From Alphaproteobacteria bacterium (lineage in GTDB: Bacteria; Pseudomonadota; Alphaproteobacteria; Bin95), in contig OZ224045.1 of assembly GCA_963665325.3 (NCBI GenBank), positions 1,696,001 to 1,760,000 on the forward strand: a stretch of DNA of 64,000 nt, given 5' to 3'. The position numbers and the translations under genes were made by a program. This document shows, in pieces, positions 8,582 through 50,205 of this stretch. The notes below the pieces were generated by a model. It was not told the origin of the DNA. It worked only from the letters and a program-made list of their open reading frames with translations, and ran no database searches. Positions within the stretch are counted from its first letter, which is position 1, and every line of letters starts with the position of its first letter.

Positions 8582-10636
8582 ATGGCAGCATCGGGCGTCG
8601 ATCCAATTACCCTGGAAGTCGTGACCGAAGGGCTGATCGCGATCGTGAGGGAAATGCGGGCGACCATCATCCGGGCGTCCTATTCGTCCGTGATCCATGA
8701 GTTCGACGACTTCTCCTGTGCGCTCTTCGATGCGGACGGCCAAATGGTGGCGCAGTCGTGGGACCATCCGGGCCATGTCCTGCCTTTGCCATGGGGTGTG
8801 GGCTGTGCGCTCGAGGACTTTCGGGACGACCTGAAGCCCGGCGATGCGGTGCTGTTGAACGATCCCTATCGCGGCGGCACCCATCTCAACGATGTCACAC
8901 TGCTCTTTCCGGTGTTCGATGACAGCGGAGCCCTGATGGTCTTTCCGGCGGTCCGGGCCCACTGGGTCGATGTCGGCGGCATGGTGCCGGGCAGCTATTC
9001 GGGTCTTTCGACCAATATCTACCAGGAAGGCGTGCGGATTCCGCCGATCAAGATCGTCGAGGAAGGGCGGGTCAATCGCGCCGCGATGACGCTGCTGATG
9101 GCGAACATGCGGGTACCGGAGGAACGTGAAGGCGACCTCAATGCCTCTTTCGGAGCGTGCAGGATCGCCGAACAGCGCATCCGGCGGCTTTACGCCAAGT
9201 ATGGCGGCGACTGTGTGAAAGATTGCATCGGGACCCATCTCGACCGCACCGAACGACGCCTGCGTGAGCGGATTGCCGAACTGCCGGACGGTGACTACTG
9301 CTATGAGGACTATCTGGAATACTTCAATGAGGGCCGCCTCGACCCGGTGTTGATGCGTCTCAGGCTGACGGTATCGGGCGACCGGATGATCGCGGATTTC
9401 GCGGGCACCAACCCGCAGGTTCCGGGGGTGGTGAACTCGTCCCTCGCGGTTACCGGCGCCGGCGTTTTCGTGGCGATAAAGGCGACGCTCGACCCTGGCG
9501 GGGCGGTCAACCAGGGCGCCTTCAGGCCTATCGAGCTGCGCGCGCCGGAGGCGTCCATCGCCGATGTTCGCCACGACGCGCCGGCGGGCGCTCACGGCGA
9601 GGTTCGCAAACGCGCCGTCTCGGTCACGCTGGGCGCCCTGTCGCAGATCGTCCCGGACCGGGTCTCGGGGGATCTCTGCGGCACCTCGTTTCCCAATGCC
9701 ATCGGCGGGTTCAACAAGAGGCGAGACCGGCAATATGTCTATTACGAGGCCCCGGCCGGCGGGAACGGGGGATTCCTGCAGCATGACGGCCCGAGCGCCA
9801 TGGTTAACGTCGACTTCGGCAACCTGCCCTCGGTGCAGACCGCCGAGTCCATCGAAAACGAGATGCCGCTGCTGGTAGAGCGTTGCGAGCTGCGCACCGA
9901 TTCCGGAGGGCCGGGCGCCAGCCGCGGCGGGCTCGGCATGCGCCGCGAGGTGCGCCTGCTGGATGACGAGGGCAGTTACTCGGTGCTCAGCGACCGGGCC
10001 GTGATTCCTCCCTTCGGCGTCCTCGGTGGCGGCAGCGCGGCACCCTACATCGTCTCGGTGGTCCGCGACGGCGTGGAAACCGGTTTCTCTACACCGGGCA
10101 AGGTAACGGGCCATGCGATTCGCCGCGATGACACCGTGGTCATGCGTTCGGCCGGGGGCGGCGGTTACGGTGACCCACTGACCCGCAATCCGGTTTCGGT
10201 TCGCCGGGACGTCTCCGAGGGCCTCGTCAGCCGGACCTGTGCAGCCGATGTTTACGGGGTCGTGCTCGACGATGACGGGGAGGTCGACACCGCGGCAAGC
10301 GATGCCGCGCGAGAGGCGCTCGCGGCGGCCCGCTACCGGGCCCGGGTTGTGGCCGACGATGCCCACGATCCCTATGTCGGTATCAGGGGACGGCGCCGGA
10401 CGGTTCGGTTGTCGCCGGCGATGGCGGCCCGGATCGGGGTCGCCAACGACGATCTGACCGAGCTGATGGGCGCCAACCCGGCGCCGCTTCGCGCCTGGGT
10501 CGCGGTCGATGCCGACCATGTCGAGGACACCGTCATGCTCGATCCGTTCGGCCGCAAGGCGCTCGGCGTCGATCATGGCGACACGGTGGTCCTGAGGGCT
10601 GTGCCCACGCCCGAGGTCCCCGGAGGGCTTGCCTGA
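8582..10636 (+). CDS. hyuB: Hydantoinase B/oxoprolinase family protein with C-terminal extension
   Basis: DPITLEV, NDPYRGGTHLND, HWVDVGG, EGVRIPP, SAGGGGYGDP; 3 bp after hyuA. Confidence 0.92.
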   Translation: MAASGVDPITLEVVTEGLIAIVREMRATIIRASYSSVIHEFDDFSCALFDADGQMVAQSWDHPGHVLPLPWGVGCALEDFRDDLKPGDAVLLNDPYRGGTHLNDVTLLFPVFDDSGALMVFPAVRAHWVDVGGMVPGSYSGLSTNIYQEGVRIPPIKIVEEGRVNRAAMTLLMANMRVPEEREGDLNASFGACRIAEQRIRRLYAKYGGDCVKDCIGTHLDRTERRLRERIAELPDGDYCYEDYLEYFNEGRLDPVLMRLRLTVSGDRMIADFAGTNPQVPGVVNSSLAVTGAGVFVAIKATLDPGGAVNQGAFRPIELRAPEASIADVRHDAPAGAHGEVRKRAVSVTLGALSQIVPDRVSGDLCGTSFPNAIGGFNKRRDRQYVYYEAPAGGNGGFLQHDGPSAMVNVDFGNLPSVQTAESIENEMPLLVERCELRTDSGGPGASRGGLGMRREVRLLDDEGSYSVLSDRAVIPPFGVLGGGSAAPYIVSVVRDGVETGFSTPGKVTGHAIRRDDTVVMRSAGGGGYGDPLTRNPVSVRRDVSEGLVSRTCAADVYGVVLDDDGEVDTAASDAAREALAAARYRARVVADDAHDPYVGIRGRRRTVRLSPAMAARIGVANDDLTELMGANPAPLRAWVAVDADHVEDTVMLDPFGRKALGVDHGDTVVLRAVPTPEVPGGLA

Positions 10637-10659
10637 TACCGGCGGTCGTCGATCGGAAC

Positions 10660-10716
10660 CGATGGCGGCCGGGACGGCGCGGCCGGGCTGCGGGACCTCC
10701 GGCGAGATGTCATGAG
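10660..10716. repeat. Dispersed non-coding repeat element, copy 1 left part (split by IS110)
   Basis: GGCGCGGCCGGGCTGCGGGACCTCCGGCGAGATGTCATGAG aligns with GGCGTCGCCGGGCGACGATGACCCCTCGGAATTGTCATGAA at ~49657-49698. Confidence 0.7.
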
Positions 10717-10799
10717 CACCCACCCGCGCGGGGCGTGGGCCCTGTCGCGCAAGTAACGGGGCCTTGTGGCCTTGGCGGCGGTGTTGTGATTTGAGGTCG

Positions 10800-10975
10800 G
10801 TCTGGGGAATGGAGGCCGGAGAATCACTGGTGTGCATGTAGCGCCCGTTCATGAGCTTGGCCCGAACCACGATCGGCTTCTGTCACTGATGGCGCGGTTC
10901 GCCGCGACCTCGTTCGAGAGATTGGGCATTGTTGCGTGGTTCTTCCCCGTCCGCACCGGCACACAAAATGGGGAC
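10800..10975 (+). ncRNA. Candidate IS110 bridge RNA in the upstream non-coding end
   Basis: About 260-bp non-coding end 5' of the transposase; GCGCC/GGCGC stem enclosing TCATGAG (target match), GCGG-TTCG-CCGC hairpin, TCGAGAGA (donor-end match); boundaries approximate. Confidence 0.55.
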
Positions 10976-10979
10976 CAGC

Positions 10980-12356
10980 ATGGCGCGCAAGACCGGGAAG
11001 AGGCAGCGGTTGAGGGTTGTGAACCCGGATTGCGCCGGGATCGACATCGGTAAGGACCGTCACTTCGTGGCCGTCGATCCGGCGCGCACTTCGGACCCGG
11101 TCCGGGCGTTCGGCGGCTTCACCTGCGATCTGCGGGCGATGGCGGACTGGCTTTCGTCGTGCGGCGTGACGAAGGTGGCGATGGAGTCGACCTCGGTTTA
11201 CTGGATCCCGGTCTACGAGGTGCTGGAACGCGCCGGCTTCGAGGTGCTCCTGGTGCCCCCGCGGATGACGAAGCAGATTGCCGGTCGCAAGAGCGACGTG
11301 CTCGATTGCCAGTGGATCTGGCAGCTTCTGTCCTACGGGTTGCTGCGGGGCGCCTTCCGTCCTGGCGATGCGGTCTGCCCGCTTCGCTCCTATGTGCGCC
11401 AGATGAAGCGCCTGACTGAAGACCGCTCGCGCTGCGTGCAGCACATGCAGAAGGCGCTGACCGAGATGAATGTCCGGCTGGACTCGGCGATCGCCGACAT
11501 CACGGGGCAGACCGGCATGAAGATCCTGCGGGCGATCGTCGACGGCGAACGCGACCCGCAGCGCCTGGCATCGTTCCGGCACCGGCGGATCAAGGCCAGC
11601 GCGGACACAATCGCCGCGAGCCTGGAAGGCACCTGGCGCGAGGAGCATCTCTTCGCCCTGGAGCAGGCCGTGCAGCGCTATGACTTCCTCGACCGGCAGA
11701 TCGAGGACTGCGAGGCGCGGATCGCGGAGCAGATCGACGATCTGACGCCACCGGACGGGCCGGGCGGCGGTGACGCATCCCACGAAACACTCCGCGCGGT
11801 CGGCCCCATGACCGACAAGGCGTTGACCGTGGCCCTGACCGCCATGATGGGCACCGACCTGACCGCGATCCCGACCATCGGTCCCGGAACCGCTCTGACG
11901 ATCGCTTCCGAGATCGGCCCGGACTTCTCCGCCTTCCCTTCCGCCCAACACTTCTGCTCCTGGCTGGGGGTGGCGCCGGGCACCAGGATCAGCGGCGGCA
12001 AGCCTTTGCCGGGCCGGACGCACAAGGTGGTCAACCCGGTCGGACAGGCCCTGCGCATGGCAGCCATGTCGGCACGAAGGAGCCAGACCTTCATCGGCGC
12101 CAAACATCGCGCCCGGCTCGCCCGAAAGGACACTCCCGTCGCGATAACCGCGACCGCCCGCGAACTGGCTTGCCTGATCTATCTGATAGTGACGCGGGGT
12201 GAGCAATATGTCGAAAAAGGCATGCAAGCCTACGAAAAACGGCGCATCGACCGTTCCCTCGCCAACCTGCGGCGCAAGGCTCGAACCCTCGGCTACCAAC
12301 TGATCCACCCCGCCCAGGACATGCAAGCGCCCGATGGTGATAGGGCCATGGCGTGA
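10980..12356 (+). CDS. IS110 family transposase/recombinase (DEDD RuvC-like plus Tnp_20)
   Basis: GIDIGKDRH, AMESTSVYW, RKSDVLDCQW, SWLGVAPGTRISGGK. Confidence 0.95.
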   Translation: MARKTGKRQRLRVVNPDCAGIDIGKDRHFVAVDPARTSDPVRAFGGFTCDLRAMADWLSSCGVTKVAMESTSVYWIPVYEVLERAGFEVLLVPPRMTKQIAGRKSDVLDCQWIWQLLSYGLLRGAFRPGDAVCPLRSYVRQMKRLTEDRSRCVQHMQKALTEMNVRLDSAIADITGQTGMKILRAIVDGERDPQRLASFRHRRIKASADTIAASLEGTWREEHLFALEQAVQRYDFLDRQIEDCEARIAEQIDDLTPPDGPGGGDASHETLRAVGPMTDKALTVALTAMMGTDLTAIPTIGPGTALTIASEIGPDFSAFPSAQHFCSWLGVAPGTRISGGKPLPGRTHKVVNPVGQALRMAAMSARRSQTFIGAKHRARLARKDTPVAITATARELACLIYLIVTRGEQYVEKGMQAYEKRRIDRSLANLRRKARTLGYQLIHPAQDMQAPDGDRAMA

Positions 12357-12376
12357 GCGTTAGTTACTCGAGAGAG

Positions 12377-12825
12377 ATGTCATGTTCTGTCATGATCGGC
12401 ATGCGCAGGGCACATGTGCTGCGGTGTGTTTCGGCATAAGGCAGCCCTCCCCGCGCTCGTCGCCCGGGCCTCGCGGCTCTTGCGTCTGTCTGCATCCGGC
12501 CCATCGTGCCCTCATTCCGTTTCGTTCCCTTTCGTTCCAATCTTCCTTCCGCCGGCGCCGCTGCGGTGGAACCCCAATTCGCGCGTATCGCATGTGCGCG
12601 GGCGCGCATGTCGGCGCCGGCGCGGTTCGCGCGCCTGATTGCGCCTGCGCGCGAAGCAAACGCAAGGCGCACGTCTCCCGTGGGTTTCAAGAGGTTTTTT
12701 TCGCGCCGGCGCCGACGCAGAAGGCATGGCGGCCTCCGGATGCCGCCTCCTTCCCTATCATTCTAGCATGGAAATTTCTGGGTCAAGCAGTTTTGGGAAA
12801 TATTACCGGATTTTCTTGAACCATG
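12377..12825. repeat. Dispersed non-coding repeat element, copy 1 right part
   Basis: TGTCATG at 12378 and 12388; TTCGCGCGTATCGC at 12578; 31-bp core 12614-12644 identical to 50008-50038; GGTCAAGC and TTTCTTG blocks shared with copy 2. Confidence 0.85.
12760..12786 (-). promoter_or_regulatory. Putative sigma70 promoter inside repeat copy 1 (TTGACC-N12-TGc-TAGAAT)
   Basis: Reverse complement reads cTTGACCcagaaatttccaTGcTAGAAT; same geometry in copy 2. Confidence 0.55.
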
Positions 12826-12871
12826 CCCCGGTTCCGATCCACGACCGCTGGCATGACCTCTCCGTGCGGCG

Positions 12872-49649: not shown

Positions 49650-50205
49650 CCGGAAAGGCGTCGCCGGGCGACGATGACCCCCTCGGAATTGTCATGAAAT
49701 GTCATGAGATGTCATGGTCGGGCGCGGGTTGCCCGTCGTCAGGCCGGCCCGCCTTGGGGCGTCCGCGGCATTGCCGGAAGCTGCCGAAGCGGTGGCAGAC
49801 GGCCTTCTGCCGGGCGGAGAGAGAGGGTTCGTGTGCGGCGGTCGCTTCAGGCATGGGCGGCGGCTCTTTCGTTCATTTTATGTTCTCTCGGCGATCCGAT
49901 GCGGTGCCGGACTGCGCCTGGCCAGGGGACGGGGTTGGCGGACAGCACGACCCCGCGGGAAGCGACCCTGTTTCGCGCGTATCGCGTGCGGGTGCGGGCG
50001 CGCGTTAGCGCCGGCGCGGTTCGCGCGCCTGATTGCGCGCGCGAGGCAGAGGGCGCACTTCGCCTGTGCGTTGAATCAGGGTCGTTTCGCGCCGGGTCGG
50101 CACGGGCGGGAAGCGGCCCGCGGATGCCCCTTCCCTCGGACCCATCATACCACACCTATTCTCAGGTCAAGCCCGATTCGAGAATTATTGCCTAATTTCT
50201 TGGAA
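49650..50205. repeat. Dispersed non-coding repeat element, copy 2 (uninterrupted)
   Basis: TGTCATG at 49690, 49700, 49710; TTCGCGCGTATCGC at ~49972; 31-bp core 50008-50038; hairpin 50108-50135; GGTCAAGC at 50165. Confidence 0.85.
50144..50170 (-). promoter_or_regulatory. Putative sigma70 promoter inside repeat copy 2 (TTGACC-N12-TGg-TATGAT)
   Basis: Reverse complement reads cTTGACCtgagaataggtgTGgTATGAT. Confidence 0.55.

Follow-up and report, generated by a model that had tools for sequence, protein, structure and literature searches.

The 64-kb window analysed here (positions 1696001-1760000 of contig C1, OZ224045.1, in the alphaproteobacterial genome G000, which comprises 5 contigs and 5.58 Mb at ~67% G+C) carries an IS110-family element that splits the sequence TGTCATG-AG^A-TGTCATG between two units of a host repeat. 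Very probably, the element is directed to the word TCATG-AG-AT at AGA-spacer junctions of such arrays by a bridge RNA encoded in its own left end. The first-pass annotation had placed an IS110 element precisely inside a 10-bp TGTCATG array, and the junctions bear this out. On the left, the heptamer TGTCATG and the dinucleotide AG lead directly into the element, which starts with CACCC at 10717; on the right, CTCGAGAG (12367-12374) is followed by an extra AG, an A at 12377, and heptamers starting at 12378 and 12388. When 10717-12376 (1660 bp) is removed in silico, TGTCATGAGATGTCATG is restored and the 10-bp period is regained. The same target 17-mer lies uncut and identical at 49700-49716, so that the window holds a filled and an empty target, as had been claimed. 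The heptamer-pair pattern TGTCATGNNNTGTCATG occurs 3 times in the window; the expectation from 100 shuffles is 0.00. Two further intact copies, one elsewhere in the genome (copy 2) and one in another metagenome-assembled genome (L031), help to define the parts of the locus, as read from the window sequence:

10708-10716, + strand: left target half, made up of the heptamer TGTCATG (10708-10714) and the AG core (10715-10716); the left flank is the same in copy 2 and L031.
10717-12374, + strand: IS110-family element, 1658 bp including the right-hand AG core (12373-12374); the length is 1658 in both genomic copies, and the element is skipped by a contig of public run X6.
12375-12376, + strand: extra AG unit between right end and right flank, lacking in copy 2 and L031.
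12377-12394, + strand: right target half, A plus the heptamers 12378-12384 and 12388-12394.
49690-49716, + strand: unoccupied three-heptamer array, with the target word at 49702-49710 and its AG core at 49707-49708.

Since GAG is common to both junctions, the position of the cut can be fixed only to within 3 nt. Alignment with copy 2 and L031 sets the canonical right end at 12374. Of the ends first given, 10717 and 12376, the left therefore stands, while the right moves inwards by the 2 bp of the extra AG, leaving the restored target unchanged.

Copy 2 (C1:1919216-1920874) is on the opposite strand and is 100% identical over positions 1-1659. Its flanks, ...GTGTCATGAG on the left and ATGTCATGATCC... 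on the right, present the same junction; the array there has two heptamers, and the extra AG is lacking. In L031, where the transposase is 98% identical, the element is found between units four and five of a five-unit array. In all three intact copies with these guides, the left flank is TGTCATGAG and the right flank ATGTCATG, and AG occurs at both junctions in each; none lies in an unrelated target, the outcome that would have spoken against the original proposal. The contig sets of four (X1, X3, X6 and X15) of the 24 public runs listed for the stretch were compared with the window. A 998-nt contig of X6 covers 10400-10713 and resumes at 12374, skipping 1660 bases with 3 ambiguous letters, and is the predicted empty allele. 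Because this allele lacks 1660 bp and not 1658, the extra AG at 12375-12376 is part of the insertion; an origin of this AG in the target, which was also considered, is argued against by the same skip. In a 4389-nt contig of X3 the skip is 1670 bases long (11 ambiguous letters); this is a two-heptamer allele with one unit fewer, and the number of array units is therefore polymorphic between strains. The target word of the element is present in the three-unit allele of X6 and missing from the two-unit allele of X3. At C1:97172 (minus strand), TGTCATGAG precedes 17-19 nt that agree with the element's left end at 15/17 positions, and the repeat body comes next; an old insertion at the same junction may have left this behind as a solo left end, or it may be a natural variant of the repeat that resembles the left end, the two being indistinguishable.

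These alleles bear on the idea that the heptamers on either side are a target-site duplication, made by the element or imported with it. The window copy does have AGATGTCATG on both sides (10705-10714 and 12375-12384), and X3 has a two-heptamer allele of the locus, both of which favour the idea. However, the flanking 10-mers differ from each other in copy 2 and L031, so that no target duplication is seen there; the X6 empty allele retains both units and lacks exactly 1660 bp; congeners without the element have 100-300 array junctions per genome; and the left guide described below needs ...TCATGAG, which is missing from the two-heptamer allele. A duplication is thus scarcely credible as the source of the repeat.

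The element has a single long open reading frame with family matches, preceded by a long non-coding stretch:

10980-12356, + strand: transposase gene, 458 aa, identified by Pfam, NCBIfam and alignment with the IS621 structure.
10717-10979, + strand: non-coding left end, 263 nt, encoding the predicted bridge RNA.

The protein matches PF01548 (N-terminal DEDD, RuvC-like; 78 bits, cut-off 29), PF02371 (C-terminal Tnp; 52.8 bits, cut-off 21.3) and the NCBIfam model NF033542, "IS110 family RNA-guided transposase" (282 bits, cut-off 140). Its alignment with the IS621 structure 8wt6 is weak (E 1.4e-5), with D, E, D, D and S in register: the D of GID, the E of MEST and both D of KSDVLD line up, and the S of RISGG falls opposite the serine of YES-GS in IS621 (S241 after a 2-residue chain offset). 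The published catalytic residues of IS621 are D11, E60, D102 and D105 (PMC11208158). The right non-coding end measures 18 nt (12357-12374), or 20 with the extra AG. A long left end, a short right end and a non-coding region upstream of the transposase are the layout described for the IS110 group (PMC11208160, PMC11187229); in IS1111 elements the non-coding region is downstream, which is not the case here. By length, the 458-aa protein fits the long "IS110 proper" subgroup, for which PMC11187229 gives 395-455 aa and which it describes as not studied closely. Judged from these domains, the element is an IS110-family insertion sequence with a DEDD/Tnp recombinase. Inspection by eye, with no dedicated repeat search, found a 6-bp pair, AGTAAC (~10752-10757) and GTTACT (12363-12368), at unequal distances from the ends. 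In a plasmid collection there was no close relative: the 134 records matched all had 60-80% identity, and none covered >=80% of the query.

The left end was compared among relatives. A genus search gave matches in 9 of 17 genomes at E <=0.001, G000 included, and the matches in five (G000, G002, G007, G009 and G013) were judged long and strong. A protein-based scan of genome contigs kept 75 loci. Together, the two gave 72 distinct instances with 24 left-end types, of which 22 were aligned (alignment A1), the two dropped being near-duplicates of L053 and L095. Across types, two short hypervariable blocks interrupt an otherwise well-conserved left end. RNAalifold on A1 predicts an outer stem enclosing a target-loop module and a donor-loop module, within which the candidate guides are placed as follows:

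10800-10951, + strand: predicted bridge-RNA core, from RNAalifold on A1 and helix counts.
10800-10806 with 10945-10951, + strand: outer stem of the predicted fold.
10814-10817 with 10859-10862, + strand: target-loop stem; inner hairpin at 10828-10847.
10864-10871 with 10935-10942, + strand: donor-loop stem; inner hairpin at 10891-10909.
10821-10825, + strand: right target guide GAAUC, on the 5' side of the target loop (columns 127-131).
10849-10855, + strand: left target guide UCAUGAG, on the 3' side of the target loop (columns 158-164).
10914-10920, + strand: left donor guide UCGAGAG, in the same sense as, and identical to, the right end at 12368-12374; its variants in relatives match their own ends.

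Over the five retained helices (33 pairs), 97.2% of 721 cells are paired, compared with 41-51% when the partners are slid. Compensatory double changes occur in 8 pairs (35 cells), and none of 500 shuffles reaches the covariation score. Conserved G-U pairs (e.g. 21/22 at columns 134:156) fit the + strand. Rfam had no match for the left end.

Loop positions in the left end covary with the flanks. When columns 100-270 were scanned without bias for mutual information with flank positions (22 types, 18 of them with right-flank data), left-flank positions -7 to -3 corresponded, in order and in the same sense, to columns 158-162, with an identity of 0.82-0.91 across the 22 types. On the right, +1 corresponds to column 130 (78% complementary) and +2 to column 129 (89%), antiparallel, in the 18 types; the signals for +3 and +4 are weaker, columns 128 and 127 ranking third and second, respectively. 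Columns 163-164 are an invariant AG, and column 131 is an invariant C that faces the core G. At the level of instances, with seven tandem-junction instances excluded, all five non-core bases of the left guide are matched in 47 of 64, and the mean match is 4.53, against 1.39 in 1265 pairings with the guides of other types. Contiguous pairing of the right guide averages 2.94 (n=47), against 1.62 for 940 mismatched type pairs. In the window element, the left guide reads in the same sense as TCATG of the left flank together with the AG core; in the right guide, C10825 is the partner of the core G, U10824 that of flank position +1 (A) and A10823 that of +2 (T). On the donor side, the guide variants TCAAGAG, TCGGGAG and TTGAGAG each match their own right end (G/A and CG/TG covariation), a test that is partly circular in that right ends were located with the guide sequence, although in seven multi-copy types the right end is fixed independently by the point where the copies diverge. 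A relative in G009, with 89% DNA identity, has the guide UCUGGAG, and 7/7 of its copies are found at TCTGGAG, TCCGGAG or TATGGAG, followed across the junction by AACC; read from their guides and flanks, these copies are a natural retargeting. RNA guidance, which the first-pass annotation had put forward for this recombinase, is thus supported by covariation between loop positions and flanks across 22 element types.

It has to be considered that the protein itself, or a host factor occupying the arrays, might select the site instead, with the left-end matches as by-products of shared ancestry. The 10-bp phasing and exact conservation of the heptamers do suggest a bound protein, and in the organism itself the guide RNA is known from sequence alone. 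Yet the loop positions covary with the flanks base by base, in register and across unrelated targets, and the IS110 family has been demonstrated experimentally to be RNA-guided (PMC11208160 and PMC11187229), so that selection by protein or host factor is very improbable.

With guidance by RNA as the preferred explanation, the insertion would proceed as follows. The recombinase would most likely be guided by a bridge RNA of about 150-190 nt from the left end, whose target-loop guides would specify TCATG-AG-AT and whose donor-loop UCGAGAG (10914-10920) would read the right end of the element itself. The 9-bp word arises wherever a spacer AGA parts two TGTCATG heptamers. The AG core of the circular donor junction would then recombine with the AG core of the target, leaving the element between two heptamers, with no duplication and with AG at both junctions. 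It is assumed here, by analogy with IS621, that the RNA is transcribed and the intermediate circular, and the chemistry is taken over likewise. For the empty array at 49690-49716, insertion is predicted after 49708. The RNA library X15 offers a weak hint of a left-end transcript, in that a close relative's 198-nt contig spans 10763-10943 with a word depth of 137.6, the other pieces over the element having depths of 3.8-30.6 except for one of 68 nt (12176-12243) at 418; contigs of this kind show no level, ends or strand, and the parts they leave uncovered are uninformative. The 68-nt piece, the deepest of the stretch, comes from the 3' part of the transposase gene and has adaptor on both sides, and may be a small RNA or an artefact.

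Several observations weigh against this picture. The right guide of the window element pairs with only 3 contiguous bases (G, A, T). The instances are kin, and the covariation counts overstate their independence. A right donor guide was not found by mutual-information scans and inspection. Folded as a single sequence, the left end has no extra stability over shuffles (z = +0.71). A scan of 10600-11050 for sigma-70-like promoters gave 0 sites, the joined circle junction not being scored, and no circle-junction joint was present in the four contig sets X1, X3, X6 and X15, contigs being a form of data that rarely shows one. Finally, the guides specify a word of only ~9 bp, TCATG-AG-AT (TCATGAGAT), of which the genome has 10 free occurrences, close to the ~8.4 expected from composition; 5 of the 10 are in heptamer arrays and 5 in unrelated sequence, and the guides alone leave unexplained why all known copies are in arrays. 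As to the missing donor guide, three candidates were discarded: GUGGUUC forms one side of the donor-loop stem; the 5' strand within the donor loop, suggested by the arrangement of the target loop, hardly varies, unlike left-end positions 1-4; and a match to GUGACGGC in G009 falls in a stretch conserved in types with other left ends.

The word counts leave room for another account, in which the 9-bp word alone is recognised and the arrays are hit as the source of about half of the words, with no specific host. The free words fit it, at 10 occurrences split evenly between arrays and other sequence. Counting free and occupied words together, 7 of 12 are in arrays, so that two random hits would both fall in arrays with P ~0.32, and selective removal of insertions in coding sequence may yield the same picture. 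On the other side, arrays are the location of each of the three intact insertions (two genomes) and of the possible remnant at C1:97172, and relatives are found in the repeats of their own hosts (in G009, 7/7 at a GGTTCTC...GAGAACC-type palindrome). Recognition of the word alone is accordingly rather unlikely, although an array preference beyond the 9-bp word is unproven. Of the earlier claim that the element specifically parasitises the repeat family, this upholds that the copies sit in arrays and leaves the specificity unproven, with half of the free words elsewhere. Only array junctions with the spacer AGA carry the word, the commonest spacers being AAA, AAG and TTT; of the five free array words, one is that of the window (49702-49710) and one is in a degenerate array.

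The arrays belong to a dispersed repeat whose remaining part follows the insertion:

12377-12871, + strand: dispersed intergenic repeat body, with a conserved core at ~12578-12754 and 75 BLAST hits genome-wide.

One relative of this body is 84% identical over 482 nt (C5:314683-314202). Genome-wide there are 86 arrays of 2-4 exact heptamers at 10-bp steps, with 0 inside gene calls, these calls being crude ones based on open reading frames and third-position G+C and covering 49% of the genome. The orientation of the genes flanking the arrays rests on the same crude calls and was not used to infer function. The arrays head a mosaic repeat of ~480 nt, with a long imperfect palindrome in the body. 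Mosaic intergenic repeats include types such as BIME/REP and RIME. Like these, the present repeat is dispersed, strictly intergenic and built of several modules; it differs in its head module, a genus-wide direct-repeat array of exact heptamers with a 10-bp period. In the body core (12578-12754 and, in the second copy of the window, 49948-50099), the palindrome has 27-nt arms at 85% and 23-nt arms at 74%; this core has at least 70 genomic copies, always downstream of a heptamer array and in the same orientation. The repeat body likewise follows the empty array at 49690-49716, with its palindrome at 49948-50099. The insertion site itself is a direct heptamer junction, the palindrome of the body being ~200-250 bp away, and is thus not of the REP type. 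Among the 17 congeneric genomes, 13 (G000 included) have at least 100 hits to the heptamer-pair pattern, while a reversed-pattern control gives 0 everywhere. Five of them (G001, G003, G006, G008 and G016) lack any match to the insertion sequence yet have 112-319 array hits, and the arrays therefore pre-date the element. Rfam has no family at threshold for the repeat, the best hit being a sub-threshold snoRNA near the body (11.3 bits, gathering cut-off 38), and a literature search with the 17-mer TGTCATGAAATGTCATG found no description of it. A bound protein is suggested by the exactness of the heptamers and their helical phasing, and the arrays, uncharacterised and present across the genus, thereby point to an unknown DNA-binding factor. 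At ~20 listed loci (e.g. G000:C1:97343, C3:936581 and C4:737699), the heptamer array is preceded by a second short repeat, GGGGCCCACTCCA.

RNA-guided IS110 elements that share a core with their target and seek out repeats are established (PMC11208160). ISPa11 targets REP sequences, and ISKpn4 and ISPst6 target attC (PMC11187229); REP-targeting elements are further described in PMC1525189 and PMC12288879, and a preprint on ISPpu10 reports a target stem-loop as a second determinant. The mechanism itself is thus known, and the present element differs from IS621 in its AG core, the direct-repeat junction as target and a reversed guide order. The resemblance to IS621 (Durrant 2024, Hiraizumi 2024) extends to the aligned catalytic residues of the DEDD and Tnp recombinase, the long non-coding left end upstream of the gene with a short right end, two internal-loop modules of which one serves the target and one the donor, left guides in the top-strand sense that include the core, and a 2-nt core at both junctions with no duplication and a repeat as target. 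In contrast, sequence identity is very low (E 1.4e-5), with 458 aa here and a chain of 328 residues in IS621; the core is AG rather than CT; the non-core part of the left guide is 5 nt rather than 7; the target is a direct-repeat junction without a palindrome; and a right donor guide was not identified in the window element. In IS621 the left target guide is at 50-58 and the right at 77-80 (PMC11208158), and in ISEc21 the order is the same (PMC11187229). In the window element the right guide (10821-10825) precedes the left (10849-10855), such that the complement of the top strand lies 5' of the loop hairpin and the match to the bottom strand 3' of it. ISEc21 shares the non-coding region upstream of the transposase, but has the opposite guide order.

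Specific targets that are naturally reprogrammed among relatives are also a feature of ISEc21 and of the IS1111-type elements ISEc11, ISPa11 and ISKpn4 with their seekRNAs, as described in the same source (Siddiquee 2024). The IS1111 seekRNAs have the guide order of the window element but a non-coding region downstream of the gene (PMC11187229), and subterminal inverted repeats of 7-17 bp, compared with the 6-bp AGTAAC/GTTACT pair seen by eye here. ISPpu9, ISPpu10 and other REP-targeting IS110 elements (Tobes & Pareja 2006) agree with the present element in that all copies lie in one intergenic host repeat, but their targets are palindromic REP sequences or stem-loops, whereas the site here is a direct junction of heptamers phased at 10 bp with no palindrome. 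An element combining an upstream non-coding region with reversed guide order was not found in the portions of the literature covered, outside of which lie the figures and supplements of PMC11208160; such a combination may already be described and, if not, would widen the design space for programmable recombinases. As AG is CT on the other strand, it would be an equivalent description that the cassette of gene and RNA is inverted relative to the recombination frame. More speculatively, a ~450-aa IS110 clade may have a layout that matches neither archetype, with the RNA upstream, the IS1111 guide order in both loops as far as visible, and an AG core; in a CT-core frame its cassette would be inverted relative to IS621, with the long guide on the right, and the (AG)1-12 tracts and head-to-tail tandems listed below would be footprints of register-slipped or donor-donor recombination. 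This proposal is tentative and more doubtful than not. The locus shows that IS110 elements exploit repeats other than palindromic REPs, and close relatives within one genus have the same RNA scaffold retuned to different host repeats. With a filled and an identical empty site in one 64-kb window, to which a second filled site in the same genome and a public empty allele of the filled locus are added, it forms a natural test bed for bridge-RNA targeting.

The junctions of relatives have some further peculiarities. In 10 of 47 related insertions (the window element at 12375-12376, L037, L038, L040, L088, L090, L092, L094, L095 and L104), (AG)n tracts with 1-12 units separate the right end (...AGAG) from the true right flank. 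Their length varies among copies of the same type within one genome, and with the tract trimmed off, the flank fits the right guide (e.g. L104); they could reflect slippage of the core repeat during recombination or replication. Head-to-tail tandems occur on OZ253557.1 (L053, L054, L057, L059, L061, L063, L064, L065, L071 and L073) and on CBDETS010000007.1 (L048). At the tandem junction the right end plus AG is followed directly by the next left end, which is a circle-type junction within the chromosome; in L052 this junction has one extra AG. The seven G009 loci at the GGTTCTC..GAGAACC-type palindrome are L005, L011, L015, L018, L020, L021 and L022 (7/7), and at locus L003 in G002 the target ...ACATATGACAG is the TGTCATATG motif entered from the opposite orientation.

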